From an uncultured Planctomycetales bacterium (GTDB taxonomy: Bacteria > Omnitrophota > Gorgyraeia > Zapsychrales > JANLHA01), in assembly GCA_964450385.1 (NCBI GenBank), contig CAYVEC010000002.1, positions 1,262 through 65,261 of the forward strand: a DNA stretch of 64,000 bases. The letters run 5' to 3'. Under the pieces are notes generated by a model. The model saw only the letters and a list, made by a program, of their open reading frames with translations, was not told the origin of the DNA and did no database searches. A program made the position numbers and the translations under genes. Shown piece after piece: positions 9,762-25,400 of the stretch (its first letter is position 1; each line of letters begins with the position of its first letter).

Positions 9762-11291
9762 TTAGGGCGTCTTGACCGTTTCCGTCTCAACCTGTGGGGT
9801 GATGATATGCGGGGTCAAAAAGATCAACAGATCTGTTTTGGCTCCAACAGTAGAATTGTGACGAAACAGACGGCCCAAAAAGGGAATGCTTCCCAAAATG
9901 GGCACCCGTGATTCATTGACAGTTGTCGTGTCCGAGATCAACCCGCCAATCACCAATGTCTCGCCATTTCGAATCATCACCCGGGTCTCGGCCTCGCGCA
10001 CTGTTAATTGCGGGACTTCCGTCCCCTCAACCGTAACATTCGCGTCAGCAATAATCGCTGTGACCCTCGGCTTTAAATCTAATGTCACCATCTCCGCATT
10101 ATTCACATGCGGCGTGACCTCAAAAATAATCCCGATATCCTTATAATTCCACCCTGACACCTGCATTTCGGCCTGATCATCATTATACGTATATTGGGGA
10201 AACGGATACTGGGTCCCCACCACAATTCTTGCCGGCTGATTGTCCAGCGTCACCACCCGAGGATTGGATAATGTATTAATATCGCTCCTCGTCTCGATCA
10301 TCTGCAATAATGTTGTGAACGAACTAAAATCAAGCATGCCGAAGGCAAAAAGATTCTCGGCATCATACGTAATAACGTTTGTTTCACTATCGATACTGTC
10401 GACGGGAATCGACAAAATAAAATTCCCGTCGTTCCCCTTGCGCATCGGAAAGGTCGAATTCCATATTGACCCCTTGCCCGAGGCCTGAAGATTCCAATTG
10501 ATCCCCAGTTTTTCCGTATCACCCAGAGTCGTCTCAATGATCCGTGCCTCGATCAAGACCTGAGGGGTCGTGGCATCAAGCCGCTTGATGACCTTTTCCA
10601 TGAGCTCCAGATTTGTCGGGGTGTCACGAACAATGAGGGAATTTGTCCGTTCATCAAAATTAATACTCCCACGCGCGGTCTTCATCTTATCGAGTGACTC
10701 CACCGCCTTGGCGGCCCGGGCATAGTTCAGCAGAAAGGTGCGCGTCTCGAGCGGTTCCTGCTCCGCCAACACCGCAGCATCCTCTCGGCGTTTCTTTAGA
10801 TTCTCGATCGTCGTGACCGTAATGATATTCTCCCGCCGATCATACCCGTACCCGTAGGTCTCAAGCACGACATCAAGGGCGCGCTGCCACGGGACCCCCT
10901 GAAGTTTGATCGTGACCAGACCCGTGACCTCAGGACCAGCGACGATATTGACCCCGCTCCGAAAGGCCAGGACACGCAGGACATCCTGAATATCGGCATC
11001 ACGGAAATCAAGACTCACCATCCCGTCGAATGAGGCCATCTCCGCAGAGGCAAGGGGAGCGCTCGATTCAGCAGACGTGGCAGAGCTTTCCGCCGTCGCG
11101 GGGTCCGATTCTGCCAGCGCGCCTTCGACCGCCGCGGGCACCTCCGCCTGAGGGGCCTCAGAAACCAAGGCCTCAGGCAATGCGACGTCTGATAACTTAG
11201 GGGTTTCGGACTGAACCGCATCCTGGGCGTACAATGAAATCGCAACACCACATACCAACATCACAATGAGCCCTATGACCACGGATCTCAT
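9762..11291 (-). CDS. pilQ: type IV pilus secretin PilQ
   Basis: The 509-aa product has a signal peptide and a low-complexity Ala/Glu/Ser linker. The C-terminal secretin domain reads 'TLVIGGLISD...VPILGSIPFLGRLF'. Confidence 0.85.
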   Translation of the reverse strand: MRSVVIGLIVMLVCGVAISLYAQDAVQSETPKLSDVALPEALVSEAPQAEVPAAVEGALAESDPATAESSATSAESSAPLASAEMASFDGMVSLDFRDADIQDVLRVLAFRSGVNIVAGPEVTGLVTIKLQGVPWQRALDVVLETYGYGYDRRENIITVTTIENLKKRREDAAVLAEQEPLETRTFLLNYARAAKAVESLDKMKTARGSINFDERTNSLIVRDTPTNLELMEKVIKRLDATTPQVLIEARIIETTLGDTEKLGINWNLQASGKGSIWNSTFPMRKGNDGNFILSIPVDSIDSETNVITYDAENLFAFGMLDFSSFTTLLQMIETRSDINTLSNPRVVTLDNQPARIVVGTQYPFPQYTYNDDQAEMQVSGWNYKDIGIIFEVTPHVNNAEMVTLDLKPRVTAIIADANVTVEGTEVPQLTVREAETRVMIRNGETLVIGGLISDTTTVNESRVPILGSIPFLGRLFRHNSTVGAKTDLLIFLTPHIITPQVETETVKTP

Positions 11292-11654
11292 CTATTCCTC
11301 CTTTATTAAGGTTAACGTCACGGTTTCATCGCCCTTCGTCAGCACCACCGATCCCTGATCGATCGTCTCGATCCGATACAACCCGATCGTCTCGCCTTCT
11401 TTTAAAATCAACCCATTAATGATCGCGACATTCGTCCCGTCATTCCCGCTCATAATCCCCTGCAAGATCATTTCCGATGACAGGAGGTCCTTGTCATAAC
11501 TAACGACGCCCCCTCCCTTGTTCACAAGCGGCCAAAACGGATCACGGCGCCCGCCATCATCATAAACAAAAGGCCCCGGCTCCTCACCGGTCCAGGCGAT
11601 CCCCGCCTGTCCCAATATTGCCAGCGCCAACATGATGATCACTGCCCAGCGCAT
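11292..11654 (-). CDS. PilP-like small periplasmic protein
   Basis: The 120-aa product has a signal peptide and an 'RRDPFWP' motif. The motif resembles the conserved RDPF motif of PilP. It sits between pilO and pilQ with no gap to pilQ. Confidence 0.45.
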   Translation of the reverse strand: MRWAVIIMLALAILGQAGIAWTGEEPGPFVYDDGGRRDPFWPLVNKGGGVVSYDKDLLSSEMILQGIMSGNDGTNVAIINGLILKEGETIGLYRIETIDQGSVVLTKGDETVTLTLIKEE

Positions 11655-11663
11655 CCCGTCCCC

Positions 11664-12275
11664 CTATTTCGGCTCAAAAATAATCACATGAAACGTCATC
11701 ACGACCCGATGGAGTTTATACGCCTGACGCTCATCGCTCGTCATCTCAAGGGCCGCGAGGTCAGCAAGAACCCCCTCGCCCTCAAGCTGATTCATGAAGC
11801 GTCCGAACTCATGATACCCGGCCTTGGCCTCGACGACAATCGGCAACAAATAATACGCCCCGTCCGCGTCCTTCAAAACCGGAGAGGCCAAGACTGTGTC
11901 CGGCACGATCTGCTCGATCCGAACCCTGTTCCCGTTCGCAATCCGTGAAATATCCTCAAGGATGTCCGGTATATCGCCCTTCCCCTTGATCATGCGATCA
12001 ATCGTCTCAAGCTTCTTGTCCAACCGTTTCGCCTCCGCCTGATATTGGCTGATCCGCTTTTCTCCGTCACGGATCGCCTTAGTCTCCGTTTTGAACTGAT
12101 GGATAGCAGTATTCAATTTGCGGAGGGCTCCTACCTGGAACTGCATGATCCCAAAATAATCGACCAAGAGGACAACGACCAGGATCGCTGAAAACAGGGC
12201 ATACGGATGCTTCTCATTGAGCGTGCCCAGTGTCGCCAGGGCGCGGTCCGATATGTCATTTTTTAATTTTAACAT
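11664..12275 (-). CDS. pilO: type IV pilus assembly protein PilO
   Basis: The 203-aa bitopic protein has one N-terminal TM helix followed by a coiled coil. It occupies the pilMNOPQ operon context. Confidence 0.7.
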   Translation of the reverse strand: MLKLKNDISDRALATLGTLNEKHPYALFSAILVVVLLVDYFGIMQFQVGALRKLNTAIHQFKTETKAIRDGEKRISQYQAEAKRLDKKLETIDRMIKGKGDIPDILEDISRIANGNRVRIEQIVPDTVLASPVLKDADGAYYLLPIVVEAKAGYHEFGRFMNQLEGEGVLADLAALEMTSDERQAYKLHRVVMTFHVIIFEPK

Positions 12276-12885
12276 TCTTCGGTTTCTCCACCACAGGAGC
12301 CGGCTGGCTCGCCTTGATCACAAAATCGGCCACCATGGTTCCGCTCAGGTCCCGGCTTCTGATCGACGTCACCTCGATCGTGTTAAAACTCTCGGCAAAC
12401 GACGGCGTCTCCTTGAGCCCGCTCAGGAACTGAGTGATGTTGATCTTCTCGATCTTCTGCTGAGACACCCCGCTCCCCTCAACGAGCAGAACCCCCTCCT
12501 TAAAAACGATCTTCCTCAGCCAAACACCCCGCGTCAAGGCGCCGCTCACATCGTTCATGGCCCGCGACCAGCAGATGTGCTGTTTTCCTAAAATTTTTTG
12601 AATCGAGCTGATCCGCGCCGCGCGTTTTTTTATCTCCTGCTCGATCCGCGTCACATTCTTCTTATTCGGTAAGGCGGCCTCCCATTGCGCCTTATAAATC
12701 TGATGCTCAGCAAGACGAATAAAAATCAGGAGCTGCAACATAATATGAAAAAAGACGAGGAGGACCGCGACCCCTCCCAGGACACCGAAAACGACGTCAC
12801 GAGGGACCACGAGGCCCTTCATCAATCGGCCGAGGCCGTGGCGTTTCTTTTGGAACTGCTGAGGCGTCAGATTAATAAGAATCAT
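12256..12885 (-). CDS. pilN: type IV pilus assembly protein PilN
   Basis: The 209-aa product has a short cytoplasmic N-terminus, one TM helix and a periplasmic coiled-coil plus ferredoxin-like region. It overlaps pilM by 4 nt. Confidence 0.7.
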   Translation of the reverse strand: MILINLTPQQFQKKRHGLGRLMKGLVVPRDVVFGVLGGVAVLLVFFHIMLQLLIFIRLAEHQIYKAQWEAALPNKKNVTRIEQEIKKRAARISSIQKILGKQHICWSRAMNDVSGALTRGVWLRKIVFKEGVLLVEGSGVSQQKIEKINITQFLSGLKETPSFAESFNTIEVTSIRSRDLSGTMVADFVIKASQPAPVVEKPKNVKIKK

Positions 12886-13976
12886 TGATACACCGCCAAT
12901 CCCAGGGCGACCCCCAGCTGACCGCTGACCCGGCGGAACTCGTCGCGCGACACGTTCGGCGCGATCTCAAACCTGCTAAACGGGTCCCAGACCTCAACGC
13001 GCACATCCAAGGAATTCGAAAAAATCCCGGTCACGCCTTTTAACATCGAAACCCCGCCAGTCAAAAAGAGCTTCGCGATAGTAATATTATTTTCAGTAAC
13101 AAAATAGTCAAACGAGAGCCGCAACTCCGTGATCAGATTCGCAATCGAAGCGTCGGCGAACTCCATGACCGCGGCCTCGCGGTCACCGGGGTTCAGTTTC
13201 AACGCCTCAGCCTCAAGGAGACTGATCTCGAGCCCCTTGGCAATGCTCTCGGCAAGGTCCGTCCCTCCCCAAAAGAGGTCCCGGGTAAACTTCGGGCATT
13301 CTCCAACGATAATCGTCAAATTGCTGACCTGCTCGCCCATATCGAGCAAGGCCACCCCGCGCGGAGCCCCGGCATCAACGGAAGCCAATTCTTCTTTATT
13401 GAAACGCATAAAGGCGTTCACGGCGGCCAACGGATTGAGGGTGATCACGTCCGGGCTGATCCCCCACTCCTGACAATGTCTGACGCGCTGATCCACAAGC
13501 TCCTTCTTAGCCGCGGCGAGCATCACGAGCATCTTCTGATTCTTAAAGTGGTTGTCCAAAATATGACAATCCGTATAGATCTGGTCAGGCGGGAACGGCA
13601 GATATTTATCCATCTCATATGTAAAGGCCTTCTGCAGCTCCTCCTTGGACAATCGAGGCATCTCCACATAACGAATGAGCGTGCCCTTGCCTGAGAGGGC
13701 CGTTGCCGGCGAGACCTCCGGGGCCGGTGACACGGCGAGGACGGCCTTAACCGCACTGACCGAGTCGTTATTTCGAACCGGCTCAACCGCCCAGGCCACC
13801 ACCTCGTAGGTGCCGGCCTTCGGCTTCACTGCGATCATCTTACAGGCGTGCGTCCCGATGTCCAGCCCGATCAGGGGCGCGACCGTGGGTTCAGGAATAT
13901 ACCGCCGGACCCATGCAAGATACCAGACCCATATCTTTTTTATTAAGACGACGAGTTGTTCGATTTTTTTCGACAT
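12882..13976 (-). CDS. pilM: type IV pilus assembly ATPase-like protein PilM (actin-like)
   Basis: The 364-aa product has 'LIGLDIGTHACKMIAV', an actin/HSP70-fold phosphate-1 loop. It is first in the pilMNOPQ order. Confidence 0.85.
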   Translation of the reverse strand: MSKKIEQLVVLIKKIWVWYLAWVRRYIPEPTVAPLIGLDIGTHACKMIAVKPKAGTYEVVAWAVEPVRNNDSVSAVKAVLAVSPAPEVSPATALSGKGTLIRYVEMPRLSKEELQKAFTYEMDKYLPFPPDQIYTDCHILDNHFKNQKMLVMLAAAKKELVDQRVRHCQEWGISPDVITLNPLAAVNAFMRFNKEELASVDAGAPRGVALLDMGEQVSNLTIIVGECPKFTRDLFWGGTDLAESIAKGLEISLLEAEALKLNPGDREAAVMEFADASIANLITELRLSFDYFVTENNITIAKLFLTGGVSMLKGVTGIFSNSLDVRVEVWDPFSRFEIAPNVSRDEFRRVSGQLGVALGLAVYQ

Positions 13977-14093
13977 AATTATAAATAGTAATAGTTACAA
14001 GGCTATAAGCAAAAATATTATAGCATCGTCCTCTGATTTCAAAATAAGGAAATGAAATATTTTCAGGCAGAGAGGTGCTCCCTTGGCAGGGAC

Positions 14094-15608
14094 CTAATAT
14101 TTCCTCCAGACCAACACCTGACACATTCGCCGATCGTTTCCGATCATGCCCGGAGGAAGGTTCTTAGCTGTAGCAGGAACCTGATAGATCTTCGGAACCT
14201 GTCCCCCCATATCAAAATAATTTGAAACGATCGTTCCAATAACATTGGTTTGTTTATCAATAGTGATTTTATCCTGGGCGTAAAAAACCCCCATAATATC
14301 GACCTGGGCGCTTTTCCCGAGATTCAGTGATTTCTTTGTCATAATCCCTAGAATATTGTCCGGGAAAGATCGATCTCCGCTTGTCACTAAATTTTGTTGA
14401 ACGACCACATCTCCGGTAAAAACCATTGAACCCTTCCCAGAGTAGACCAAGTCTGTTTTTTTAGAACTCAACGCAAGCGGCGTTGTTCCATTATCAACAT
14501 AAAGAATGCCGTCTACTGTTAGCGCCCCATTCCCATCCCAAGATACGCTCCCTTTTGAATTACCAAAGCTAAACGCGCCCTGATTAGCAAGATTTCCAAG
14601 TTTTGTTTTTTCAGCAGCGGTTAATTCATAACCGGTTGTTTTTAAATAGGCCTCATACGTTGGATACCCCTTATAGGGATCGCTCAACCTGGGGAAAGAA
14701 ATCTCCTCCCCTAAATCAAAGGCCTCACTCGTCCCGTTATCAGAAAAAACATGTCCCGCCCCCGCCGTGCCGCCGTAGCCATCTGTAACATAGACACCGT
14801 CAACCGTCTCTTTATAACCATTGCCTGTGACGTTCGCCTCACCGACGGCAGATGATCCGCTGATGCCGACAATCCCCTTTTTAACGCGCAGGGTCGCATT
14901 CAATGTCTCAACCCACTCATTGTTAAAAAAGACCTGCGGAAGAACTGGCACCTTGGCTTTTAAATAATCCGCGAGCGTCCGATAGTTGTTCCCCACGATC
15001 TCAGCCGTCCCTCCGAGATCAACCGCATAAGCCCCCTCGTCTAAGTCTTCCCCTAAAATAAGGACCGCTCCCCGAATATCCACATTTCCGTTAATAATTT
15101 TCCCTGACATCCCGCTCCCGGCGAAGATCACATACTCCCAGGGAGACAGATTCACCTGTTTAATATAAACTTCAAGACGGGTCACCGCATCCTGGACCTG
15201 CCCCACGGAACGGATCAAAAGAACACTCGCGTCATTCTGGGCGCGCGTGACGGTCACATTATATTGGCCGTCTTGAAAAGGAACATCGGTAAAAAAATCC
15301 TCTGCGGTGACATTGTCCTCAAAAACGACGTTGATCCCATAGATACTCCCATTCCCCCAAGGATTATAGGCCGAATCATTGTTGAGGTCCCAATCCAGGG
15401 CATAGAACGCAGCATCAACCCCTGCCTCGGCGATGTGAAAGCTCTTCATCGACAGACGTTCCCGCTCAGCGAGCCGCAACTCGCTCGTCGCCAGAAGCAT
15501 GAACGCGGCGCCGATGCCGAGGAGAAGGGCGATCACGCAGTACGCGATGATCAACAGGCTCCCGCGCTCATTGTGAAGACACGCTCGCTGCATCTTTTTC
15601 ATGATCAT
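14094..15608 (-). CDS. large minor pilin with a PilX-N-terminal domain (putative tip or adhesin subunit)
   Basis: The 504-aa product has an N-terminal hydrophobic segment. This is followed by 'ELRLAERERLSMKSFHIAEAGVDAAFYAL', a PilX_N-type signature. The large C-terminal region is predicted beta-rich and Gly/Asn/Thr-rich. Confidence 0.55.
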   Translation of the reverse strand: MIMKKMQRACLHNERGSLLIIAYCVIALLLGIGAAFMLLATSELRLAERERLSMKSFHIAEAGVDAAFYALDWDLNNDSAYNPWGNGSIYGINVVFEDNVTAEDFFTDVPFQDGQYNVTVTRAQNDASVLLIRSVGQVQDAVTRLEVYIKQVNLSPWEYVIFAGSGMSGKIINGNVDIRGAVLILGEDLDEGAYAVDLGGTAEIVGNNYRTLADYLKAKVPVLPQVFFNNEWVETLNATLRVKKGIVGISGSSAVGEANVTGNGYKETVDGVYVTDGYGGTAGAGHVFSDNGTSEAFDLGEEISFPRLSDPYKGYPTYEAYLKTTGYELTAAEKTKLGNLANQGAFSFGNSKGSVSWDGNGALTVDGILYVDNGTTPLALSSKKTDLVYSGKGSMVFTGDVVVQQNLVTSGDRSFPDNILGIMTKKSLNLGKSAQVDIMGVFYAQDKITIDKQTNVIGTIVSNYFDMGGQVPKIYQVPATAKNLPPGMIGNDRRMCQVLVWRKY

Positions 15609-15610
15609 CG

Positions 15611-16126
15611 TCAGTTCCTCAGGCTAATGAAAAACTCTGTCTGCCGGGTGATCGGCACCCCGGACACGGTCTTTTGCGCTGTGATATCGATCTCGATCAG
15701 ATCCGGTTCAGTCATCGACGGCGCGCACCCGAAAACCAGAATATCCGACGCCACGACCCGGGTGACGCCCCCTTCTGTCTTAAGCAGCTGATGGGTGCCG
15801 GCATCAAGGATAAAACGGATCTCGGCATCCTCACCGGCTGGCCACGTCTTAAGTCCAGAAATGAATTCTGGCTTTTTAAAAATCATCATCCCGTCCGCAA
15901 GAGTAATGACCCCGCCCTGCCCGGTCTCGCGTAACGTCCCGGTGATCCCGGTCACGGCCCGGCGGATCTCCTGCTGAAGCTCGATCCGCGTCCGGTTCGC
16001 GCTCCAGAAGCGCTGAGCGACATTCGAGGTCGCGGCCATCCCGCCGGCCAAAAAGAGAAAAATAAAAACAACGACCATGACCTCTGGCAAGGTCATGCCT
16101 TGAGTCCCTCGTCCTCGTGTCAGCAT
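15611..16126 (-). CDS. minor pilin (PilW-like) with class III signal peptide
   Basis: The prepilin cleavage motif is 'G|MTLPEVMVVV' with Glu at +5. I moved the start to the internal Met, which removes the overlap with the upstream gene. The ORF track runs to 16186. Confidence 0.6.
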   Translation of the reverse strand: MLTRGRGTQGMTLPEVMVVVFIFLFLAGGMAATSNVAQRFWSANRTRIELQQEIRRAVTGITGTLRETGQGGVITLADGMMIFKKPEFISGLKTWPAGEDAEIRFILDAGTHQLLKTEGGVTRVVASDILVFGCAPSMTEPDLIEIDITAQKTVSGVPITRQTEFFISLRN

Positions 16127-16160
16127 CCGGTGATCCATCCCCAACTCCCCTGCCTCTCCG

Positions 16161-16679
16161 TCAGCGCCGTGCCAAAACCGTCTCAATCGTGACCGGTGAA
16201 TCGATCAACAGATTGCCATTGATATCCTCGCCGTCCAAGGCGCCGTCCAAATTCTGGTCCTCGCCGACCACCCGGCCGTTGTGATTCCGCCAGCAGACCG
16301 CAACGCGGACCGCAAGGACCTCAAGGGGCTCTCCGTTAATAAGCTCCTCAACCGCACCGCTCGCTGCGACATGCGTGTTCACAACACGGACCGTGCCCAG
16401 GCCCTCGACCCCATCGAGCGGAAACGTCCGGCCATTATATGTTGAGATCAGCGTATCAAAATCAGCCTCGCGCATCTCCTCTATCAAGGCGTCAGCCGCG
16501 ATCAGCGCCGTCATTTTCTTCTCGGCCATGTCCCCGGCGGCCGCGATATAAAGATATCCCCGGATCAATCCCAAGATCACGACCGCAAGAATCGCAGCAA
16601 CAAAGATCACCTCGACGAGTGTAAACCCCCCCCTCGTCCGCCGGCCATGGCCCCATCTCTGACACAAACATTTTCTCAT
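16161..16679 (-). CDS. minor pilin (PilV-like) with class III signal peptide
   Basis: The 172-aa product has the motif 'G|FTLVEVIFVAAIL' with Glu+5. Confidence 0.6.
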   Translation of the reverse strand: MRKCLCQRWGHGRRTRGGFTLVEVIFVAAILAVVILGLIRGYLYIAAAGDMAEKKMTALIAADALIEEMREADFDTLISTYNGRTFPLDGVEGLGTVRVVNTHVAASGAVEELINGEPLEVLAVRVAVCWRNHNGRVVGEDQNLDGALDGEDINGNLLIDSPVTIETVLARR

Positions 16680-17404
16680 AGCGCAACCTCTGTCTCAACG
16701 GGAGTCACCCGCTCCGTCTTAATCAATTGTCCTGACGGATCAAAACGTAAAATTTCAACGAGCTGTCCATGCCGATTATACGCCTTTTTATAACGATTTG
16801 GATCGCGGTTCGTCAAATTCCACTCATACATAACCCGCCCGTCATTAAAATAAACAATTCCATGTCCCGTCTCAACCTCATCAGGCACATTTAAGGCATC
16901 ACGATAGTCGATCTCCATCCGAAGGTCCCCGGATGTAAAATATTCTTTCATCCAAACGATCTTACCGCGATCATACTCCTTAATAAAACGCAGCTGCCCT
17001 GTCTTAAAATATTCGCGATACTCCCCGTCCCAGGCCCCATCGCGCCACTCAGCGTTCCCATATGTCTTCGTCGTCGTATTCTCAAAGGCCACCTTGCCAT
17101 CCGGCACATCACCGCTCATATCAAAGATCCGTTCCCCCTGGCTCTTAAAGCGTCCGATCTGTTCTCCGTTCAGCGAGACAAAATGCAGATTGTATGTCCG
17201 GCTCGGATCCATGACCACCATCATCGTCATCTCAACCGACGGCGCGACAATAAGCCGACCCGAGACGGTCTCGTCGTCAACCGCCTCCTCTTGAACGACA
17301 GGCTTTACCGAGACCCCCTCAAGACGGCGCATGACCACAATATTGATCACGCACCCGGTGACCAATGCCACCCCGATCAGGATCCATGTCTTTTTCTTAT
17401 CCAT
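16676..17404 (-). CDS. membrane-anchored MORN/YwqK-type repeat protein
   Basis: The 242-aa product has an N-terminal TM helix. It carries repeated 'G...Y..G.L......Y' units resembling MORN-variant/YwqK repeats. It is embedded between pilA and the minor pilins. Confidence 0.45.
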   Translation of the reverse strand: MDKKKTWILIGVALVTGCVINIVVMRRLEGVSVKPVVQEEAVDDETVSGRLIVAPSVEMTMMVVMDPSRTYNLHFVSLNGEQIGRFKSQGERIFDMSGDVPDGKVAFENTTTKTYGNAEWRDGAWDGEYREYFKTGQLRFIKEYDRGKIVWMKEYFTSGDLRMEIDYRDALNVPDEVETGHGIVYFNDGRVMYEWNLTNRDPNRYKKAYNRHGQLVEILRFDPSGQLIKTERVTPVETEVAL

Positions 17405-17437: not shown

Positions 17438-17473
17438 AAAAAAAGAGGGGGGCCTAATCATTAAGCCCCCCTC
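17438..17473 (-). terminator. rho-independent terminator downstream of pilA
   Basis: On the minus strand there is a perfect 9-bp GC stem GAGGGGGGC/GCCCCCCTC with an 11-nt loop. It is followed by TTTTTTT. Confidence 0.6.
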
Positions 17474-17488
17474 ACAGCACCCAACTCG

Positions 17489-17926
17489 TTACGGAGCTGG
17501 TTCCGGCTCAGGTTCAGCAGCCGCAACCCTCTCCAAGATACCGCCTGTGGTGATGCTGAAAATAACATCATCAGCACCTTCGGGCTTGGTCACAAGCGTC
17601 GCCACGAATTCATAGGCAGCGTCTGTGGCCGTGGGCCAGGTATACTCAAACCCTGAGATTGTACCTTCGCCTACATACGCACGATTGAGATACGGCGGAT
17701 TGGCCTCCGTCAGATCCGCCAATGCTGTCGGATAATTGCCGTTGTGCGATGACGCATAGGTCTCGGCTGCGGTTGATAGTGTCCGCAGGGTGCTCTGCGC
17801 CAACGCCTCGTTGGCCGTCATCCTGGCTCGCAAGAGGTTCGGGATCGCAATGATCGCCAACAGCGCGATGATCGCGACCACGATCATAATCTCGACGAGC
17901 GTGAAACCACGTTGATACCTTCTCAT
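17489..17926 (-). CDS. pilA: type IVa major pilin PilA
   Basis: The short leader reads 'MRRYQRG|FTLVEIMIVVAIIALL' with Glu+5. A perfect SD 'AAGGAGGG' lies 5 nt upstream of this ATG. The ORF track extends to an upstream ATG at 17986. Confidence 0.82.
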   Translation of the reverse strand: MRRYQRGFTLVEIMIVVAIIALLAIIAIPNLLRARMTANEALAQSTLRTLSTAAETYASSHNGNYPTALADLTEANPPYLNRAYVGEGTISGFEYTWPTATDAAYEFVATLVTKPEGADDVIFSITTGGILERVAAAEPEPEPAP

Positions 17927-18422
17927 CTTTCCCTCCTTGTACGTTGACGTACGTTCTCCCCAACCTCCTGCCGCCTGGCCGGGCATTGCGTCGTCACGTG
18001 CCGAGAGAAAAAAGAAAAGATAACTACATTTATCCCGTCACCCAGACGCCTAATGCCTTAACCATTTGGCCCTAAAAGATTTACCAACTTTTGTATAATA
18101 TCACACAGACAGCGTGTGTCAATCGGTAAACCAAAAACTTCAGACAGAATAAAAAAACCCTATTCACAGGGTCAAATAGGGCACAGTTCCATTATATTAA
18201 AACTTCTTTATTAATGGCAACTGGCTGCCCCTATCCACGATAGTCGGGCCCTCTAGCTTTGTGTCCCATCCTTCCGAATGGTTTACCTTGAGCATTAAAC
18301 ACCTTTTTCAAAGAACGTTCTTCCGACACTACAAGTATAGTCTAGGCCTATCGCAAAAGTCAAGGGCACCAAAAGTAGCAAAAATATAATGATTTAAATA
18401 AAATTTGTAAAAAATGAAGGGA
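17927..18422 (-). promoter_or_regulatory. about 0.5 kb AT-rich non-coding leader and promoter region of pilA
   Basis: No credible ORF lies here and GC is clearly below the window average. A GGCACG-N5-GACGCAA element sits at about 17986-18003 on the minus strand. It resembles a sigma54 -24/-12 box but its spacing is 1 nt off consensus. Confidence 0.4.
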
Positions 18423-20114
18423 TTACTGCATCTGCGCCTCGAGAAGTCCGAGTTTGTCCACTAAGCCGCGGTTCTCCTTCTCTAATATCTCAAGATAACT
18501 CGCCAGCTCTTTCATCTCCATGGCCGCCTCATCACGATCCAAACTATCGGCACGGTATTTCTGCTGGGCAATCTCCAGCGAACCCTTCAACGCCTTCTGG
18601 CGGGCCCGCAAGGCAGCCAGGGCCTGCTCCCTGGCCTGTTTATTTTCAACCGCCTTCACCTTGGCCTGGTCCCTCTCTTCAGCCAAAACCTGCGCCTGCT
18701 TCGCGCCCTCTGCCACATCGGTCTCAAGTTCCTTGAGCCGCTGGCTCAATGATGTCTCCTCGGCTGTCACACGCTCGAGCAGGCGAGACCGATCCGTCAT
18801 CTCCCGCTCCGCCGCCTTCCGCACCGCCTCCCTCGTCTCCTCAGCGAACCGCTGTTTGGCCCGCTGGGCTAAAAGATTCTGATATTCACTGCCGAACACC
18901 TTCTGCCGCATCCTCCCCGTCTCCTCGGCAGCGCCGGCCACGCGTGATGCCATCACCGCGAGCTCCGCCTTAAGCCCTTCCATGTCGCCTCGCAACCGAG
19001 CCGTCTCAGCCTCTTGGGCCGCGATCTCGCGCCCGATATCCGCCGAGTCCGACTGAAGGATCCGCTGCCGCGCAGCCAATTGTTCCTGCTCCCCAACGAG
19101 AACCAGTCGCTGATGGTCTGCCCCCGCGACCCCATCTTCGGCCGAGCGCTTGATCTCAAGGAACCGCGCCCGAGCGCGGAGCAACTCATTATGCTCACGG
19201 ACCTGGGCCCGCAGGCGCTCTAAGGCCTCAGCCTGTCGGTCAAAATCAGCGGTGATCTCCCGACGGACACGGGCCATGTCAGCGCTCGCCTCGCGGAGCG
19301 ATTGACTATACTGACGAAGCCCCGCAACCTTGAGTTCCGCTTCCTTCACCACGGAACGACCCTCACTGCGATAACGGCTCTTATGGCGCTCTAATAATGC
19401 GTATTGATCTTCAGCCTCTCGGATCTCTAGACGAAGGAGCGAGGCTCGCTCCTCAAGCCCCGACCGCTGGCGGAGGGTCTTTTCCTTTAAACCCAGCTGA
19501 TGGGTCCGCTCGACGTCAAGAAGATCGGCGTCGCCCTCTTTCGCAAAGATCCGCCGCCGGACATCCTGGACCATCTCACGGAGCTTAACGCGCTCTTCGG
19601 AATAATAATCCAGCAATTCATTCGGCGCGCGTCGAAGACCCCGCTCCTTAAGGACCTTGATCTCGGGGGTCAGGGCCTCGATCGTCTGCTGAGCGAGACG
19701 CTGTTCCTGAGTCTCCCTCTCGATCCGCTGGGCCACCCCGTCCTTCTCGAGAGTCAAAAAACGCTGGCGTTCTAAAATATTCGCGGCATGTTTGCGAAGG
19801 CCATCGAGTTCCCGGCCCTCGGCCTTGATTGTATTCCTCATCACGGCGGCCTCTTCCATCAAACGAGTCCGCCGATCGCTGAACGAACGCGATTCGTCAC
19901 GAATAAAGATCATCCTTTTTCGAAGGGCATCGTTCTTTCCGGCAAGCTGCTGGTTCTGATCAACCAATCCCTTGATCTTCTCCTGAAGGTCGATGAGGGT
20001 ATATTCAAGGAGGTCATCGGCGCTCATCCCGCCCTGCTGAGCGTGGGCGCCCACGGCCCAGACGCCGACGGCCACGATCGCCACAATGATGTTCAACCCC
20101 CTCTGTCCCCGCAT
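18423..20114 (-). CDS. secreted long coiled-coil protein of unknown function
   Basis: The signal peptide reads 'MRGQRGLNIIVAIVAVGVWAVGAHA'. About 540 aa are then dominated by Glu/Arg/Ala/Leu/Gln heptad-like sequence. It lies between pilC and pilA. Confidence 0.5.
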   Translation of the reverse strand: MRGQRGLNIIVAIVAVGVWAVGAHAQQGGMSADDLLEYTLIDLQEKIKGLVDQNQQLAGKNDALRKRMIFIRDESRSFSDRRTRLMEEAAVMRNTIKAEGRELDGLRKHAANILERQRFLTLEKDGVAQRIERETQEQRLAQQTIEALTPEIKVLKERGLRRAPNELLDYYSEERVKLREMVQDVRRRIFAKEGDADLLDVERTHQLGLKEKTLRQRSGLEERASLLRLEIREAEDQYALLERHKSRYRSEGRSVVKEAELKVAGLRQYSQSLREASADMARVRREITADFDRQAEALERLRAQVREHNELLRARARFLEIKRSAEDGVAGADHQRLVLVGEQEQLAARQRILQSDSADIGREIAAQEAETARLRGDMEGLKAELAVMASRVAGAAEETGRMRQKVFGSEYQNLLAQRAKQRFAEETREAVRKAAEREMTDRSRLLERVTAEETSLSQRLKELETDVAEGAKQAQVLAEERDQAKVKAVENKQAREQALAALRARQKALKGSLEIAQQKYRADSLDRDEAAMEMKELASYLEILEKENRGLVDKLGLLEAQMQ

Positions 20115-20131
20115 CGTCAGCCCCTCCACCC

Positions 20132-21337
20132 CTACTTAATCATCTGAGTCAGACTCAAGATCGGCATAAACAAGGCGATCACGATGAACCCAATGACAAC
20201 GCCCAAGACAACAATGATCACCGGTTCGATAATGCTCGTCAGACTCGCAACAGCGGCATCGACCTGGTCCTCATAAAACTCCGCAAGCTTGGTCAGCATC
20301 TTTTCAAGCTGACCGGATTTTTCGCCGATCGAGATCATCCGCGTCACCATCGGCGGGAAGACCGGACTTTTCATCAGTTGCGTGGCGATGCTATCGCCTT
20401 CACGAACGCTGTTTTTGACCGATTCGATGACGAGCTCGATCTCGCGATTGCCGCTCGTCCTGCCGACGATGTCAAGCGACTCAAGGATCGGCACACCGGT
20501 CTGGAGCAGGATCGCGAGCGTCCGGCTGAACCGGCTGATCACCGCCTTGCAGATGAGTTCTCCAAAAAGCGGGATGCGGAGCATCAGGCGGTCGATCGCC
20601 AACCGCCCCGCCGAGGTCCGATACCATCGCGCCAGAAAGAAAATGCCGACGACCAACGCCCCGAAGATCCACAACAAGTATTTCTTGAGAAAATCGCTCA
20701 TGTCGATCAGGATCTGGGTCATCCAGGGGAGCTCTGTGTCGAACGATTCATAGATCTCGGCAAAGGCCGGGACCATCTTCACGAGCAGGAGCGTGGTGAT
20801 CCCGATGGCGACACACACAACAACCGCGGGATAGGTCAAGGCCGAAATGACCTTGCGGCGCAGTTTCGCGCTTTTCTCAAGATACCCCGAGATCCGGTCC
20901 AGGATCTTGCTCAAGACCCCGCCGGTCTCGCCGACCTTCACCATGTTCACAAAGAGATTATCAAACACCTTCGGATGTTTGGCGAAGGCGGCCGACAGAC
21001 TACTGCCCAATTGAATGTCCTCGCGGAGTGAGCCGATGACCATCCTAAAATACGGATGGGTCATCTGCTCTTCAAGGGCCTCTAGGCACTGGAGGATCGG
21101 AATGCCCGCCTCGACCATCGTCGCAAGCTGCCGGGAAAAAATAACAAGGTCATCGGATTTGACCTTCTTCCGTTGAAAGGAGAACGCAATCCCCTTCTGC
21201 CTCACCTCGACGATCGAAACGACCATCAGGTTGCGGTTGCGGAGCTCGGAGACCACTCCTTTTTCATTATCAGCGGTGACGGAACCCATCACGGTCTGGG
21301 CATTATGGTCCTTCGCGACATACTTATAAGTCGGCAT
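20132..21337 (-). CDS. pilC: type IV pilus inner-membrane platform protein PilC (GspF family)
   Basis: The 401-aa product has two GspF repeats with three TM segments. Confidence 0.88.
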   Translation of the reverse strand: MPTYKYVAKDHNAQTVMGSVTADNEKGVVSELRNRNLMVVSIVEVRQKGIAFSFQRKKVKSDDLVIFSRQLATMVEAGIPILQCLEALEEQMTHPYFRMVIGSLREDIQLGSSLSAAFAKHPKVFDNLFVNMVKVGETGGVLSKILDRISGYLEKSAKLRRKVISALTYPAVVVCVAIGITTLLLVKMVPAFAEIYESFDTELPWMTQILIDMSDFLKKYLLWIFGALVVGIFFLARWYRTSAGRLAIDRLMLRIPLFGELICKAVISRFSRTLAILLQTGVPILESLDIVGRTSGNREIELVIESVKNSVREGDSIATQLMKSPVFPPMVTRMISIGEKSGQLEKMLTKLAEFYEDQVDAAVASLTSIIEPVIIVVLGVVIGFIVIALFMPILSLTQMIK

Positions 21338-21429
21338 TGCAATCCCTCTTATAATATGATGATTACAAAAAATATTTTATCATGTTTGTATCTTCAGAAT
21401 ATTGATTTCTGAGATTTCTTTACGCCGGA

Positions 21430-23139
21430 TCAAATGTCGCTCGTTGCGATCCGAAGGGCCTCCTCAAGACTCGTGAGACCCGCAGCGCACTTTCCGATCA
21501 CATCATCCCACAACGTGACCATCCCTCGGTCCGCGCAGGCGTACTTTTTGATCGCATCCGATGATTCGCCCCGAATGAGCATCGTGCGCACCGCATCATC
21601 GATCTCGAGGACCTCGGTGACCCCGAGACGGCCATGATATCCCGTGCCGCGGCAGATGTCGCATCCCCGGGCGCGATAAAAAATCGTTCCGGGAGGAGCC
21701 TCGACGTGCAACCGCGCCAAGGCATCGGCGGGAACATCCTCGCGCTCCTTACAATGACTGCAAAGACGACGGCAGAGACGCTGGGCGCACACAAGGACGA
21801 GACTCGATGCAACAAGGAACGGCTCAATCCCCATATCAACAAGCCGGGTCAAGGCGCCGGCGGCATCGTTCGTGTGCAGGGTCGAGAGCACGAGCTGGCC
21901 GGTCAGCGCTGCCTTGATCGCAATATCCGCGGTCTCACCATCGCGGATCTCGCCGACCATGACGACGTCGGGACTCTGACGAAGGATCGCACGAAGGGCC
22001 GAGGCAAAGGTCAGTCCGATTTCAGGCCGGGCCTCGATCTGGGTCAACCCCTCGACAAGGTATTCAACCGGGTCTTCGACCGTAATGATGTTCCGGTCAA
22101 CGGTGTTCAATTCATTGATGACCGAATACAAGGTCGTCGACTTTCCACTCCCCGTCGGTCCGGTCACCAAGAGCATCCCGAAGGGTTTATACATCCCCTC
22201 CTTCAGGACCTCGGTAGCCCGCGGCGAAAACCCCAGACCGCTTAATCCCACACTCAAATTTTTCTTATCAAGAACACGCAGGACCACCTTCTGCCCGAAC
22301 GTCGTCGGCAGGAGGGACACGCGGAAATCTACTTCCGTCGAAGAGAACCTCATCTTGAACCGTCCATCCTGAGGGGCCCGCGTCTGCGTAATATCAACGC
22401 GGGACATAATCTTAATTCGAACGATCACCGCGTTCTGATTGTCTTTCGGCACATTCATAATATCTTGGAGAACTCCGTCGATGCGGAAACGCACCCGCAT
22501 CCCTTCGGGGGCCGGCTCGAGATGGATGTCCGAGGCACGTTGGCGAAGGGCCTCTTTGATCATAAGATTAACCAGCCGAATGATCGGCGCCTGTTCGCCC
22601 TCATCGGCCCCTCCGTCGGCCACGTGATTGTCGGCCCGTTCGGTCACGATCTCAAAGTCCTTCAAATCGATATCACGGCTGAGATCACGGACACTGTCCG
22701 TAACCGCACCGCTGTAATAATCCTCGATCGCCTGCATAATATCGGTTTCCGTCCCCATCACCATATCGATGTCGTGCCCGGTAATATTCTTCAGGTCATC
22801 CGTCACAAACACATTGAGGGGATCAGCGATCGCGACCGTGATCGTGTCTTTCAGACGAGAGAGGGGGACAATGTGATACTGCCGGGCGACGCGCTCGGGA
22901 ACCAGATTCTTCAGTTCAGGACTGATCTTATATTTCTTTAAATTAATGAACGGGATCCTGAGCTCCTTCACGAGCGAGGTCAGCATGTCCTCTTCTTTGA
23001 TCAGCCCCTTCTCGATCAGAGCCCGATCCAGAGAGATCCCCCGGCTCTCCTGAAGGGCGATCGCCGACTCGATCTCCTTCTGCGGGATCTTTAATGACTC
23101 GATCAGGGCCTTAATGATCTTTTGCTTTAACGTATCCAC
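21430..23139 (-). CDS. pilB: type IV pilus assembly ATPase, PilB/GspE family (paralog B)
   Basis: The 569-aa product has an N-terminal GspE_N domain and Walker A 'GPTGSGKST'. It carries the tetracysteine motif 'CSHC...CDIC'. Confidence 0.85.
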   Translation of the reverse strand: MDTLKQKIIKALIESLKIPQKEIESAIALQESRGISLDRALIEKGLIKEEDMLTSLVKELRIPFINLKKYKISPELKNLVPERVARQYHIVPLSRLKDTITVAIADPLNVFVTDDLKNITGHDIDMVMGTETDIMQAIEDYYSGAVTDSVRDLSRDIDLKDFEIVTERADNHVADGGADEGEQAPIIRLVNLMIKEALRQRASDIHLEPAPEGMRVRFRIDGVLQDIMNVPKDNQNAVIVRIKIMSRVDITQTRAPQDGRFKMRFSSTEVDFRVSLLPTTFGQKVVLRVLDKKNLSVGLSGLGFSPRATEVLKEGMYKPFGMLLVTGPTGSGKSTTLYSVINELNTVDRNIITVEDPVEYLVEGLTQIEARPEIGLTFASALRAILRQSPDVVMVGEIRDGETADIAIKAALTGQLVLSTLHTNDAAGALTRLVDMGIEPFLVASSLVLVCAQRLCRRLCSHCKEREDVPADALARLHVEAPPGTIFYRARGCDICRGTGYHGRLGVTEVLEIDDAVRTMLIRGESSDAIKKYACADRGMVTLWDDVIGKCAAGLTSLEEALRIATSDI

Positions 23140-23143
23140 GTTA

Positions 23144-24859
23144 TTACCCTATTCCTTCGTCAGGCGCGGTGACACGCAGAACCTCCTCAAGCGAGGTGTG
23201 CCCAGCCACCGCCTTCAAAAGCCCGTCCTCACGCATCGTCCGCATCCCTTCTCGCCGTCCGACCTCTTTGATCTTAAGCTCCCCGGACTGATGGAGGATC
23301 TCTTCACGCACCGGGGCCGTGAGGACGAGAAGCTCGCAAATAACAACCCGGCCGACATACCCAGTATTAAGGCACTCGGGACACCCCCTGCCGCGATACA
23401 GGCGGAACGTCTTCTCACCTAAGAGGGCCGTCAACCCCACCCGGCGAGCGAGCTCCGGCACAACCTCATACGATTCGCGGCATCGCGGACAGATCCGCCG
23501 GACAAGACGCTGCCCGGTGATCGCCAGGACCGAAGAGCACAGGAGAAACGGCTCGATCCCCATGTTCATCATGCGGATGATCGACCCTGCCGCCGTTGTC
23601 GTATGCAGGGAACTTAAGACCAGATGCCCAGTCAGCGCGGCCTTGACCGCGATATCCAGGGTCTCGGTATCCCGGATCTCACCGATCATGATGATATCAG
23701 GATCCTGCCGGAGGATCGAACGCAGGGCCGAGGCAAAGGTCAAACCTACCGACGGCCGGACATTCACCTGATTGATGCCCTTGACCTGATATTCAACCGG
23801 GTCCTCGACCGTGATGATGTTCTTCCCTGGAGAATCGACAAATTTCAGAACGGAATACAGGGTCGTGGTCTTCCCGCTCCCCGTCGGACCGCACGAGAGG
23901 ATCATCCCGTGGGGATGGAGCGAGACCTCCTTGAGACGGGCCAGATCCGACTCCTCAAACCCAAGCTTCTCAAGGTCCAACGCCCCAGCGGATTTGTCAA
24001 GGACGCGGAGCACGATCTTCTCACCGAACGCCGTCGGCAAGACATTGACACGGAAATCAATCTCACGGCCGTTGACCACGGTCTTGAACCGCCCGTCCTG
24101 CGGCAACCGGTGCTCCGAAATATCAAGATTGGAAACAACCTTAATCCGTGAAATGATCGGCTGATGCAGGGCCTTGGCCATCTGATCGATCTCGCGAATG
24201 ATACCGTCGATACGATACCGAATACGGAGCGTCGCCTCCATCGGTTCGATGAACACATCGCTCGCCTTCGCAAGGACCGACTGATGAATGATCGTGTCCG
24301 TCAACTTGATCATCGGGGCGTCCTGGACGATGTCCGTCACCTTAACATCACCCACCCCGTCACTCTTCACGAGCTCGCCGTCCTCAGAGATGTCTTTAAT
24401 GATGTCCTTAAGGGCCGCGCTCGTATCGGCAGAATAATATTTATCGATGGTCTGTTGGATCTGGGCCGAACGACCGATGATCGGAATGATGTTCAGGCCT
24501 GTCAGGACCTGGACATTATCGATCGCAAAAATATTGAGGGGATCGGCCATGGCGAGGGTGAGGTTATCCCCCATCCGCGAGACCGGCATGATCTTGTTTT
24601 TCTCGGCGACAGCGCGCGGGATGATCTTGACGACCTCGGGATCGATGCGCAGGCGCGAGATGTCGATCGGCGGCATCCCAAGCCCCTCGCTTAACGCATG
24701 GGTCAGATCGTCCTCGGTCACCAGCTTCATCTGAACCAGGATCCGGCTCAGCTCGCCCCCGGATTTCTTTTGCTCATCGAGGGCCCGCTGAAGGTCCGCC
24801 TCTTTGATGATCTGATCCCTGATCAGGACCTGCTGTAAACGTTCCTTGAGCGAGAACAT
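23144..24859 (-). CDS. pilB: type IV pilus assembly ATPase, PilB/GspE family (paralog A)
   Basis: The 571-aa product has an N-terminal GspE_N domain and Walker A 'GPTGSGKTT'. It carries the tetracysteine motif 'CPRC...CPEC'. Confidence 0.85.
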   Translation of the reverse strand: MFSLKERLQQVLIRDQIIKEADLQRALDEQKKSGGELSRILVQMKLVTEDDLTHALSEGLGMPPIDISRLRIDPEVVKIIPRAVAEKNKIMPVSRMGDNLTLAMADPLNIFAIDNVQVLTGLNIIPIIGRSAQIQQTIDKYYSADTSAALKDIIKDISEDGELVKSDGVGDVKVTDIVQDAPMIKLTDTIIHQSVLAKASDVFIEPMEATLRIRYRIDGIIREIDQMAKALHQPIISRIKVVSNLDISEHRLPQDGRFKTVVNGREIDFRVNVLPTAFGEKIVLRVLDKSAGALDLEKLGFEESDLARLKEVSLHPHGMILSCGPTGSGKTTTLYSVLKFVDSPGKNIITVEDPVEYQVKGINQVNVRPSVGLTFASALRSILRQDPDIIMIGEIRDTETLDIAVKAALTGHLVLSSLHTTTAAGSIIRMMNMGIEPFLLCSSVLAITGQRLVRRICPRCRESYEVVPELARRVGLTALLGEKTFRLYRGRGCPECLNTGYVGRVVICELLVLTAPVREEILHQSGELKIKEVGRREGMRTMREDGLLKAVAGHTSLEEVLRVTAPDEGIG

Positions 24860-24862
24860 GCC

Positions 24863-25312
24863 TTATGATTTCCGGTAATATTTCGTGATCGCCTCTTTAA
24901 TATCCGCGCCCGTCGCGACAAAGGTCTGAACGCTGCACCCGGTCAAGGCCTCAACATCCTCAACGGCAGTCATGTTCAACGGATCGGCCATGGCCAAGGT
25001 CAGGCTCTTTCCGATCTTATCGATCGGGATCAGACAAAACCGGCGGCAGACATCTTCAGGAACCGCGTCGAGAACTTCCTGATCGATCTCATAATTCGCC
25101 AAAGGCAAGTAAGGAAAACCATATTGACAGGTCAGGGCCTGCGCGATATCCTCTTCGGTGGCGAATTTCAGTTCGACGAGGACCTCACCAAAGAGCCCGC
25201 CTTTTTCTTTTTGAAAGGCCATGGCCGCGAGAACCTGATCCGCGTTGATCACGCCTCGGTCGATGAGGAGCTCGCCCAAATGTTTATTTGACGCCCGCTT
25301 TAAATTCTTCAT
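24863..25312 (-). CDS. standalone GspE_N/MshEN-like domain protein (candidate c-di-GMP binding)
   Basis: It runs about 150 aa from the internal Met 'MKNLKRASNKHLGELLIDRGVINADQVLAAMAFQ'. This fits the MshEN motif pattern RLGxxLxxxGxIxxxQLxxALxxQ. It has no ATPase domain. Confidence 0.55.
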   Translation of the reverse strand: MKNLKRASNKHLGELLIDRGVINADQVLAAMAFQKEKGGLFGEVLVELKFATEEDIAQALTCQYGFPYLPLANYEIDQEVLDAVPEDVCRRFCLIPIDKIGKSLTLAMADPLNMTAVEDVEALTGCSVQTFVATGADIKEAITKYYRKS

Positions 25313-25400
25313 CCATCCCCCGATCACCCAAAATCTTGCGCTTATTGTACTACAGAACACACCTTCGCTCAATTTATAGTATTATTAATGCTACTATATT

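Follow-up and report, generated by a model that had tools for sequence, protein, structure and literature searches.

A lineage-typical type IVa pilus cluster of Omnitrophota with a predicted ComZ-like pilin and two putative levels of c-di-GMP input

The window analysed here, a stretch of 64,000 nucleotides (nt) of contig CAYVEC010000002.1 from an uncultured bacterium of the Omnitrophota, carries a cluster of genes for a type IVa pilus (T4aP). The cluster fills positions 9762-25372 exactly with 15 consecutive open reading frames (ORFs), all on the minus strand, and it is a genuine, well-conserved T4aP cluster of Omnitrophota with a composition typical of the clade. We put at about 80% the probability that it is a lineage-typical T4aP cluster with a ComZ-like tip and two-level input from cyclic di-GMP (c-di-GMP). 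The most informative feature, missed in the first-pass annotation of this DNA, is a riboswitch module that lies in the gap between the gene of a secreted coiled-coil protein and pilA, the gene of the major pilin.

In the mechanism that we propose, PilB-type ATPase activity would be exerted on the PilC platform within the PilMNOP alignment complex, and PilA would be polymerised through the PilQ secretin. Two small minor pilins and a ComZ-like beta-solenoid pilin would form a tip complex that primes assembly; the beta-solenoid pilin would stand in place of PilX/PilY1 and probably contacts the target, which may be a host cell or DNA. c-di-GMP would enter at two levels. Read-through of the riboswitch would add to, or interfere with, the transcription of pilA, and a stand-alone MshEN protein encoded in the same operon as both ATPases probably senses c-di-GMP in trans.

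The uncultured Omnitrophota are for the most part ultra-small and are believed to be predators or parasites; pili have been proposed as their attachment organ (PMC10066038). T4aP clusters have been detected by TXSScan in nearly all Omnitrophota and read as host-attachment organelles (Seymour et al., PMC10066038). The presence of T4aP in the phylum is thus already published, as presence/absence only, and neither that paper nor its supplements mentions PilB paralogues, PilT, MshEN or riboswitches. What is added here is the riboswitch/terminator/dual-promoter module, the distinction between intact and degenerate MshEN motifs, the ancient PilB pair and the conserved coiled-coil gene; together with the rest of the inventory, they give a concrete parts list and a putative control circuit for pili previously scored only as present or absent.

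The cluster and its conservation across the phylum

Related loci were collected with PilB1, the first of the two PilB-type ATPases, as the query and one genome per species, which gave 80 loci at 54-82% identity; each consists of PilB1 with up to 10 kb on either side, and gene order was mapped by tblastn and ORF mapping. Nearly all of these loci are from metagenome-assembled genomes (MAGs) of Candidatus Omnitrophota. The order common to them begins with (mreBCD-PBP2-)RodA, an MshEN-only gene, PilB1, PilB2, a second MshEN-only gene in 44 loci, and PilC. It continues with a gene for a protein of 210-575 amino acids (aa), one or two copies of PilA, a minor-pilin cassette in a subset of loci, PilMNOPQ and RNase G. 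The window locus is flanked by the cell-shape operon mreBCD-mrdAB and by rng. Its genes are separated by 3 nt at the MshEN/PilB1 junction, 4 nt at PilB1/PilB2, 92 nt at PilB2/PilC and 2 nt between PilC and the coiled-coil gene, and the pairs MORN/mp172 (mp172 being a minor pilin), PilM/PilN and PilN/PilO overlap.

The first-pass annotation had described a co-directional 15.6-kb array and listed its genes, with PilC plus two PilB paralogues as the motor. This inventory is borne out by the minus-strand ORFs at their exact coordinates and by profile matches, which for the motor are to T2SSF and to MshEN + T2SSE (Table 1). The locus had also been called complete, with all core parts; these words are overstated, because PilD and PilT are absent from the window. 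Furthermore, the genes regarded as atypical extras (MORN, coiled-coil and MshEN-only) are real, but the MshEN-only gene, the tandem PilBs and the coiled-coil gene are conserved across the 80 loci. Since the same order is shared across these Omnitrophota loci, the features that had been flagged as non-canonical are the norm of the phylum. As for reassigning the extra genes to known pilus families, the 504-aa protein of the cassette can be placed with ComZ/GspK-type pilins by its predicted fold, whereas the 568-aa coiled-coil protein has no family.

A c-di-GMP-I riboswitch module upstream of pilA

The c-di-GMP-I (GEMM-I) aptamer is the single Rfam match in the whole window, and 8 of the 10 related loci tested are also Rfam-positive for the riboswitch. 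Using our own covariance model, which was built from eight aptamer copies and on which the window aptamer scores 90 bits, the aptamer was found on the operon strand in 31 related loci; it lies 230-450 nt upstream of pilA in 26 of the 39 loci with detectable PilA. Covariation supports the helices: among 32 distinct sequences, 96.3% of the cells are paired and 6 pairs changed on both sides, counts that lean towards the model because the alignment was fitted to it; none of 500 shuffles reaches the observed value, and slid controls are 28-52% paired. The window aptamer reads GGGACACAAAGC and has the canonical A47 (Vc2 numbering) where the RF03167 consensus has G. RF03167 ranks first in a small-region E-value search with 55.3 bits, below its cutoff of 59; its 'GGC variant' label was rejected because the canonical A is present.

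The module is ordered as promoter P1, aptamer, terminator, promoter P2, pilA and a second terminator. An intrinsic terminator follows the aptamer within about 50 nt or less in 33 of 34 cases, and its stem is conserved as CCUAUUC/GAAUAGG. Of 26 related loci, 24 have a P1-like sequence (TTGACA-N16-18-TATACT) that matches at 10 or more of the 12 positions, and in 22 of these 24 it stands 10-40 nt upstream of the aptamer, while P2 is conserved at 10 or more of the 12 positions in 17 of 23 loci. RNAalifold found no conserved structure in the approx. 160-nt 5' untranslated region of pilA, and a sigma-54 promoter upstream of pilA was sought in 23 leaders and found in none. The pilA gene itself probably starts at the ATG at 17926, with the Shine-Dalgarno sequence AAGGAGG 8 nt before it; together with the strong terminator downstream of the gene, a 13-bp stem and seven T's at 17473-17445, this agrees with the earlier description of a major pilin gene that has its own Shine-Dalgarno sequence and terminator. 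PilA has the leader MRRYQRG and the mature N-terminus FTLVEIM, that is, a class III leader with Glu5, and it is devoid of cysteines. Two tandem c-di-GMP-I aptamers occur upstream of pilA in L018 (15777-16062), L029 (16836-17692) and L046 (11825-12691).

Because P1, the aptamer and the terminator stand directly upstream of P2 and pilA, ligand-dependent read-through would be expected to affect pilA transcription, and the module may be regarded as c-di-GMP-controlled read-through on top of a basal pilA promoter. As to its direction, an OFF switch is tentatively favoured, because the 5' strand of the terminator, which does not overlap the aptamer's own P1, can pair with the invariant AAGGAUGGG segment. 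It is known that class I c-di-GMP switches work in both directions (PMC6366702). Several observations weigh against this view of the module. The predicted antiterminator pairing is weak (mean z -1.1), with 17 of 30 duplexes on the GGAUGGG segment, and the riboswitch is absent from 13 loci, which form a more distant clade. Moreover, because the conserved P2 lies downstream of the riboswitch terminator, the riboswitch may be outside the main pilA mRNA.

The last point leads to an unlikely but real alternative, in which P1, aptamer and terminator make up a separate small RNA that buffers or sponges c-di-GMP, as does merRNA of the predator Bdellovibrio (PMC3627812), and do not regulate pilA in cis. 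Such an RNA would fit a near-consensus promoter and a terminator of its own, with a second conserved promoter for pilA further downstream. However, the placement immediately upstream of pilA is conserved in 26 loci, and the conserved sequence of the terminator stem suggests a ligand-dependent switch rather than constitutive termination.

Free-standing and ATPase-fused MshEN domains

The second putative c-di-GMP input of the cluster is the stand-alone MshEN protein (MshENa), whose true start is likely M21 at 25312, giving a product of 149 aa. An orthologue is found upstream of PilB1 in approx. 73 loci, and the closest PDB match of MshENa lies in the GSPII domains of PilF, a Thermus ATPase that carries three of them in cis. 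In the second MshEN-only protein (MshENb) the domain is encoded between PilB2 and PilC, in 44 related loci (e.g., L047 13971-14423); the window has only the 92-nt gap at this point. The MshEN domains fused to PilB1 and PilB2 match PF05157 with 77 and 79 bits, respectively; on NF053729 (cutoff 38), the domain of PilB1 passes with 51.1 bits and that of PilB2, with 24.5 bits, falls below.

The domains were compared with the c-di-GMP motif of Wang et al. (2016, PMC5013675), using the relaxed 24-residue half-motif, which reads [RKPN]hGxxhhxx[GAS]hhxxxxhxxxhxx[QNKRYWST], in which Gly3 and Gln24 are polar-contact positions. Among the MshENa orthologues, Gly3 is kept in 73/74 for half-motif I and 74/74 for half-motif II, and Gln24 in 69/74 and 74/74, respectively; MshENb retains both residues equally well. 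In the MshEN domains of PilB1 and PilB2, by contrast, Gly3 is gone from both half-motifs and Gln24 from the second. This pattern suggests that MshEN proteins of the cluster may bind the ligand and that the c-di-GMP sensor function sits in the free-standing ones. Since the PilB-fused domains have lost key ligand-contact residues, the stand-alone MshEN protein probably senses c-di-GMP in trans.

Against this stands the stacking residue, Arg1, which is missing from both half-motifs of the stand-alone protein. Arg1 is replaced in both stand-alone proteins. In MshENa its place is taken by Gln or His in the first half-motif and by Leu in the second; in MshENb, aromatic residues stand in for Arg1 in motif II. 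The window protein also fails the relaxed motif at position 1 (motif I) and at positions 1 and 10 (motif II); of the 74 MshENa orthologues, 8 pass motif I and none passes motif II.

The locus is further tied to c-di-GMP by a HAMP-GAF-GGDEF gene, located between RodA and MshENa in 17 related loci (e.g., L007 8406-9887, L014 8520-9950). Its GG[DE]EF motif is degenerate where readable (AEHEF, GDHEF or AEDEF), and the gene is absent from the window. In one related locus (L045 8825-9886), a GspK-family pseudopilin with T2SSK domains and a pilin-like ORF are encoded just upstream of the MshEN gene.

The minor-pilin cassette

The cassette between PilA and PilM encodes a MORN-repeat protein, two small minor pilins and a protein of 504 aa. 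The 504-aa protein matches no Pfam or NCBIfam family and lacks both Glu5 and an N_methyl match. It has 239 homologues of about 500 aa, a few of which match PF14341 (PilX_N), and all those with a named source are from Omnitrophota. An AlphaFold2 model based on 67 sequences (predicted local distance difference test score 89, predicted template modelling score 0.80) consists of a long N-terminal helix (residues 14-77), a four-stranded sheet (102-153), a large beta-solenoid (approx. 161-475) and a last strand (494-503) that returns to the sheet. When the model was compared with the PDB by Foldseek, the only strong match was Thermus ComZ (6qvi; E 7e-19, probability 1.00, TM 0.53-0.55), and the next matches were ice-binding solenoids. 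The same solenoid/ice-binding similarity has been noted for ComZ itself, in which the solenoid is inserted before the last strand of a GspK-like pilin domain (PMC6561018). Judged by its modelled fold, the 504-aa protein is a structural homologue of ComZ, i.e., a ComZ/GspK-type pilin, and ComZ-type solenoid pilins would thus occur outside Thermus too. The first-pass annotation had counted three class III minor pilins, including this one as a PilX-N-type giant. Two of them do have N_methyl, and some homologues of the third carry PF14341; the third itself lacks Glu5 and an N_methyl match, and its predicted fold is ComZ-like.

ComZ binds the neighbouring GspI-like pilin PilA2 and DNA, is needed for transformation and has been proposed to cap the pilus (PMC6561018). 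By analogy, the ComZ-like pilin may be located at the tip; the only link seen to a ComZ-style partner is that its gene adjoins a GspI-like minor pilin gene. PilY1, FimU and PilE are absent from the window, as had been reported. A tip set of the pseudopilin type, made up of the ComZ-like pilin and the two small minor pilins, may account for the lack of these proteins and of PilX, whose role it would fill. The ComZ-like protein would then be the obvious candidate for target recognition.

Homology to a protein that binds DNA and is needed for transformation could also mean that the pilus serves mainly in DNA uptake (competence), like that of Thermus, rather than in adhesion or motility, and the stand-alone MshEN protein is indeed most like the GSPII domains of Thermus PilF. 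This interpretation is doubtful. The 504-aa protein is only 19% identical to ComZ, the DNA-binding lysines could not be mapped, and Pfam scans of the window ORFs found no ComEA/ComEC. In addition, mp172, the GspI-like pilin, has 13 orthologues, and no more than 13 of the 80 loci contain this cassette gene; in the literature, the pili of the phylum have been read as organs of host attachment (PMC10066038).

The two small pilins are less well characterised by their profiles, which matched only pilin N-termini in the PDB, so that the GspI/GspJ labels are weak; a GspJ/PilW-like role of the pilin at 15611-16186 is suggested by its position. The C-terminus of mp172 has a conserved Asp/Gly/Asn-rich stretch, GEDxNLNGxLDxGEDxNGNxxLDSP, that resembles calcium-binding loops. 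The MORN-repeat membrane protein reported earlier is confirmed by its PF07661 match. Only 2 homologues were found among 5.8 billion proteins, and none in the 80 genome loci. One relative, 44% identical, is encoded on an ENA contig (L081) in the order coiled-coil, PilA, MORN, pilin, pilin, ComZ-like; given this same cassette order, the MORN protein appears to be a lineage-specific yet retained member of the cassette. GC content falls to its window minimum (0.50) in the cassette region. The cassette is patchy among relatives: the closest one (L006, 82% PilB1 identity) goes from PilA directly to PilM.

Two PilB ATPases and the question of retraction

PilB1 and PilB2 are 43% identical and score 450 and 436 bits, respectively, on the Pfam T2SSE domain. 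On the NCBIfam PilB model, TIGR02538, both lie just below the equivalog cutoff of 675.65 (622 and 611 bits). In the PDB comparison, their top ATPase matches are PilB of Geobacter (550 and 524 bits) and Myxococcus, ahead of GspE (approx. 380 bits) and PilT (114-134 bits). On these scores, both appear to be PilB-type, and neither looks like a disguised PilT.

A midpoint-rooted neighbour-joining tree of 73 PilB1 and 65 PilB2 sequences separates the paralogues into reciprocally monophyletic groups, with identities of 0.51-1.00 within either group and 0.36-0.48 between them. PilB1 is closer by score to Geobacter PilB (550 bits) than to PilB2 (479 bits), and the duplication is therefore old. Both groups keep Walker A and Walker B, the Asp box, the two CxxC pairs and the second histidine of the His box. 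The sole systematic difference at the catalytic site is Gln in place of the first His-box His in PilB2 (LTGQLV; at least 90% of the 65 orthologues), where PilB1 keeps His. In Geobacter PilB the equivalent residue is H413, which contacts T411 by packing at the interface between subunits (PMC5424180). Across the 73 + 65 sequences, PilB1 and PilB2 show no complementary losses of the kind that would make a heteromer obligatory, and any division of labour between them would be conjectural.

When the 64-kb window was searched by tblastn with the two PilBs as queries, nothing but their own genes and the MshEN gene was matched, which upholds the earlier statement that the locus and the window have no PilT/PilU. 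Similarly, there is no extra PilB/PilT-like match within 10 kb of PilB1 in the 80 related loci, and the prepilin peptidase PilD (Peptidase_A24) has no Pfam match in window ORFs of at least 150 aa. These absences count against our interpretation in that they leave room for a PilT-independent system. In many species, however, pilT is unlinked to pilB. K02669 PilT ORFs have been reported in Omnitrophota MAGs (PMC8672522), and for this reason a PilT-less pilus is not established. PilT and PilB are unmentioned in PMC10066038 and its supplements, in a complete-genome preprint (10.64898/2026.06.07.730766) and in a giant-gene preprint (10.1101/2023.11.21.568195). We expect both PilT and PilD to be encoded elsewhere in the genome.

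The pilus could nevertheless be truly PilT-less, with PilB1 and PilB2 forming a hetero-hexamer, or with one extending and the other retracting it, and with the MshEN-only proteins and c-di-GMP selecting between them. This would be consistent with the lack of PilT-like matches in the window and within 10 kb of PilB1 in the 80 loci, and with tandem pilB genes that are spaced by 4 nt, conserved phylum-wide and both under constraint. The His-to-Gln change specific to PilB2 lies at an inter-subunit position of the His box, and one or two MshEN genes that would act in trans flank the PilB pair. Yet both paralogues have all PilB hallmarks (tetracysteine motif, MshEN domain and arginine-finger motifs) without complementary loss, and no heteromeric PilB is known. 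With pilT commonly unlinked to pilB and the K02669 ORFs in the phylum, we consider a PilT-less pilus distinctly improbable. Slightly less probable still is the full scheme that may be built on it, in which PilT-less pili run on a two-paralogue PilB motor whose output (extension/retraction, on/off) is set by c-di-GMP via free-standing MshEN, while the riboswitch gates the pilin supply. If true, type IV filaments of ultra-small, host-dependent bacteria would have a motor and control architecture of a new kind. Should PilT prove to be missing from the whole genome, the tandem PilBs would bear on the retraction of PilT-less pili.

Alignment complex, secretin and secreted coiled-coil protein

PilM, PilO and PilQ are recognised by their families (Table 1). 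The 120-aa PilP-like protein has no Pfam PilP match, and in the PDB a profile of 18 orthologues matches only Myxococcus xanthus PilP (3jc8; E 0.003). That the assignments of PilN and PilP fall below family cutoffs weighs against the proposed mechanism, in which both take part; the PilM-N-O-P order and the sizes fit. A dual machine, in which one ATPase powers pseudopilus secretion of the type II kind through the same PilC and PilQ, draws on GspE model scores of 576 (PilB1) and 574 bits (PilB2) that are near the PilB scores, on GspI/GspK-like minor pilins and on a GspD score of 284 bits for PilQ, but it is the least probable of the alternatives, as the cluster has the PilMNOP set and no GspC, GspL or GspM matches, PilQ and PilM pass T4P-specific cutoffs, and separate GspD/E/F loci occur next to giant genes in Omnitrophota (10.1101/2023.11.21.568195).

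The secreted coiled-coil protein of 568 aa that had been reported within the locus matches no Pfam or NCBIfam family and finds only itself among 5.8 billion proteins. Nevertheless, the same type of protein is encoded directly after PilC in 50 of 52 loci: it has a cleavable signal peptide, shares L-[ED]-Y-[TS]-L-x-x-L-[KR]-x-S as its N-terminal motif, and comprises 210-575 aa in which E, K, R, Q, L and A abound. From these shared sequence features, the product appears to be a conserved, fast-evolving, length-variable periplasmic coiled-coil component. A role as scaffold or spacer would be a guess.

Comparison with characterised pilus systems

With the canonical T4aP of Pseudomonas aeruginosa and Myxococcus xanthus, the cluster shares PilB, PilC, PilM, PilO, PilQ, putative PilN and PilP, a short-leader major pilin and the G|FTLxE site. 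It differs from them in its two tandem PilBs, its MshEN-only genes (one or two), the conserved gene for a secreted coiled-coil protein that follows PilC, and the ComZ-like candidate tip pilin in place of PilX, PilY1, FimU and PilE. Moreover, PilQ is without an AMIN domain, PilA is without cysteines, no PilT or PilD is encoded nearby, and a c-di-GMP-I riboswitch precedes pilA. Thermus thermophilus (PilF, pilA1-3-comZ-pilA4) differs from the window locus in having PilT paralogues and no known riboswitch at the pilin gene. Both have a solenoid in a GspK-like pilin whose gene lies next to those of small pseudopilin-like minor pilins (PMC6561018), and in both MshEN (GSPII) domains outnumber ATPase domains. 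The Thermus system has a single ATPase with three fused MshEN domains, whereas the window locus has two ATPases and encodes the extra domains in genes of their own.

The riboswitch resembles Cdi-2-4 of Clostridioides difficile, a c-di-GMP riboswitch with a terminator platform upstream of pilA1 (PMC6366702). Cdi-2-4 is a class II ON switch of a monoderm; the one described here belongs to class I, comes from a diderm candidate phylum, and has its own promoter and a second promoter after the terminator. Like merRNA of Bdellovibrio, it is a c-di-GMP-I riboswitch with its own promoter in an organism suspected of a predatory or host-dependent lifestyle (PMC3627812), but merRNA has no downstream gene, while the module always adjoins pilA. 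MshE of Vibrio cholerae has the same domain (PF05157, NF053729), with recognisable tandem 24-residue half-motifs (PMC5013675). In contrast to MshE, the domain occurs here as a free-standing 149-aa protein with Arg1 replaced in both half-motifs, and the ATPase-fused copies are degenerate.

Features of the window

Table 1. Genes and regulatory elements of the pilus cluster (positions in the window)
Feature	Coordinates	Strand	Evidence
PilQ secretin (N0/STN, N1, secretin; no AMIN domain)	9762..11291	-	Secretin 163 bits; TIGR02515 313, cutoff 284
PilP-like periplasmic protein, 120 aa	11292..11654	-	orthologue profile; conserved position in loci
PilO	11664..12275	-	PF04350 39.6 bits, above Pfam cutoff
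PilN (weak)	12256..12885	-	PF05137 18.3 bits, below cutoff 22.8; conserved position in loci
PilM	12882..13976	-	PilM_2 156 bits; TIGR01175 162 bits, cutoff 133
ComZ-like minor pilin (candidate tip pilin), 504 aa, predicted pilin fold with inserted beta-solenoid	14094..15608	-	AlphaFold2 model and Foldseek
Minor pilin (G|MTLPE)	15611..16186	-	N_methyl 22.6 bits; TIGR02532
Minor pilin (G|FTLVE), GspI/PilV-like, mp172	16161..16679	-	N_methyl 27 bits; TIGR01707 GspI E 4e-5, below cutoff
Membrane-anchored MORN_2-repeat protein, 242 aa	16676..17404	-	PF07661 33.5 bits
Strong intrinsic terminator after pilA	17438..17473	-	13-bp stem, 8 GC pairs, then seven T's
pilA, major prepilin	17489..17926	-	N_methyl 37 bits; TIGR02532
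Predicted promoter P2 (TTGACA-N16-TG-TATTAT)	18095..18122	-	downstream of riboswitch terminator, approx. 160 nt before pilA
Intrinsic terminator after aptamer (expression platform)	18150..18182	-	hairpin and U-run
c-di-GMP-I (GEMM-I) riboswitch aptamer	18213..18297	-	RF01051 58.9 bits, gathering 35, E 6e-9, model positions 1-87
Predicted promoter P1 (TTGACT-N18-TATACT), would drive riboswitch	18334..18363	-	near-consensus sigma-70
Secreted coiled-coil protein, 568 aa, first gene after PilC	18423..20129	-	position and shared features
PilC platform protein	20132..21337	-	T2SSF 230 bits in two stretches; NCBIfam models of PilC and GspF, 400-416 bits
PilB2, second PilB-type ATPase (MshEN + T2SSE)	21430..23139	-	TIGR02538 611 bits; 5zfr 524 bits
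PilB1, PilB-type assembly ATPase (MshEN + T2SSE)	23144..24859	-	TIGR02538 622 bits; Geobacter PilB 5zfr 550 bits
Stand-alone MshEN-domain protein (MshENa, MshEN169)	24863..25372	-	PF05157 76 bits; NF053729 56.6 bits, cutoff 38

According to Pfam scans, the remaining large ORFs of the window are housekeeping genes only. An F-type ATPase beside the locus, a linkage described in the literature for part of the phylum, was considered and rejected, as the scanned window ORFs contain no ATP synthase domain. On the minus strand, a single ORF (61570-62595) combines SET (90.6 bits) and SpoU methylase (118.5 bits) domains, and an AddAB-like pair of large genes (43443-49459) encodes a 931-aa PD-(D/E)XK nuclease protein and a 1074-aa UvrD-helicase/nuclease. 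A coiled-coil protein of 281 aa (32030-32875, minus strand; UPF0242 below cutoff) is encoded between a murA-like gene of the EPSP-synthase family and an rluD-like gene. The sole sizeable plus-strand ORF that does not overlap a larger minus-strand ORF is at 56188-57495; its product of 435 aa has a signal-peptide-like N-terminus and no Pfam match. All other assigned genes of the window are on the minus strand, and the GC skew is negative throughout.

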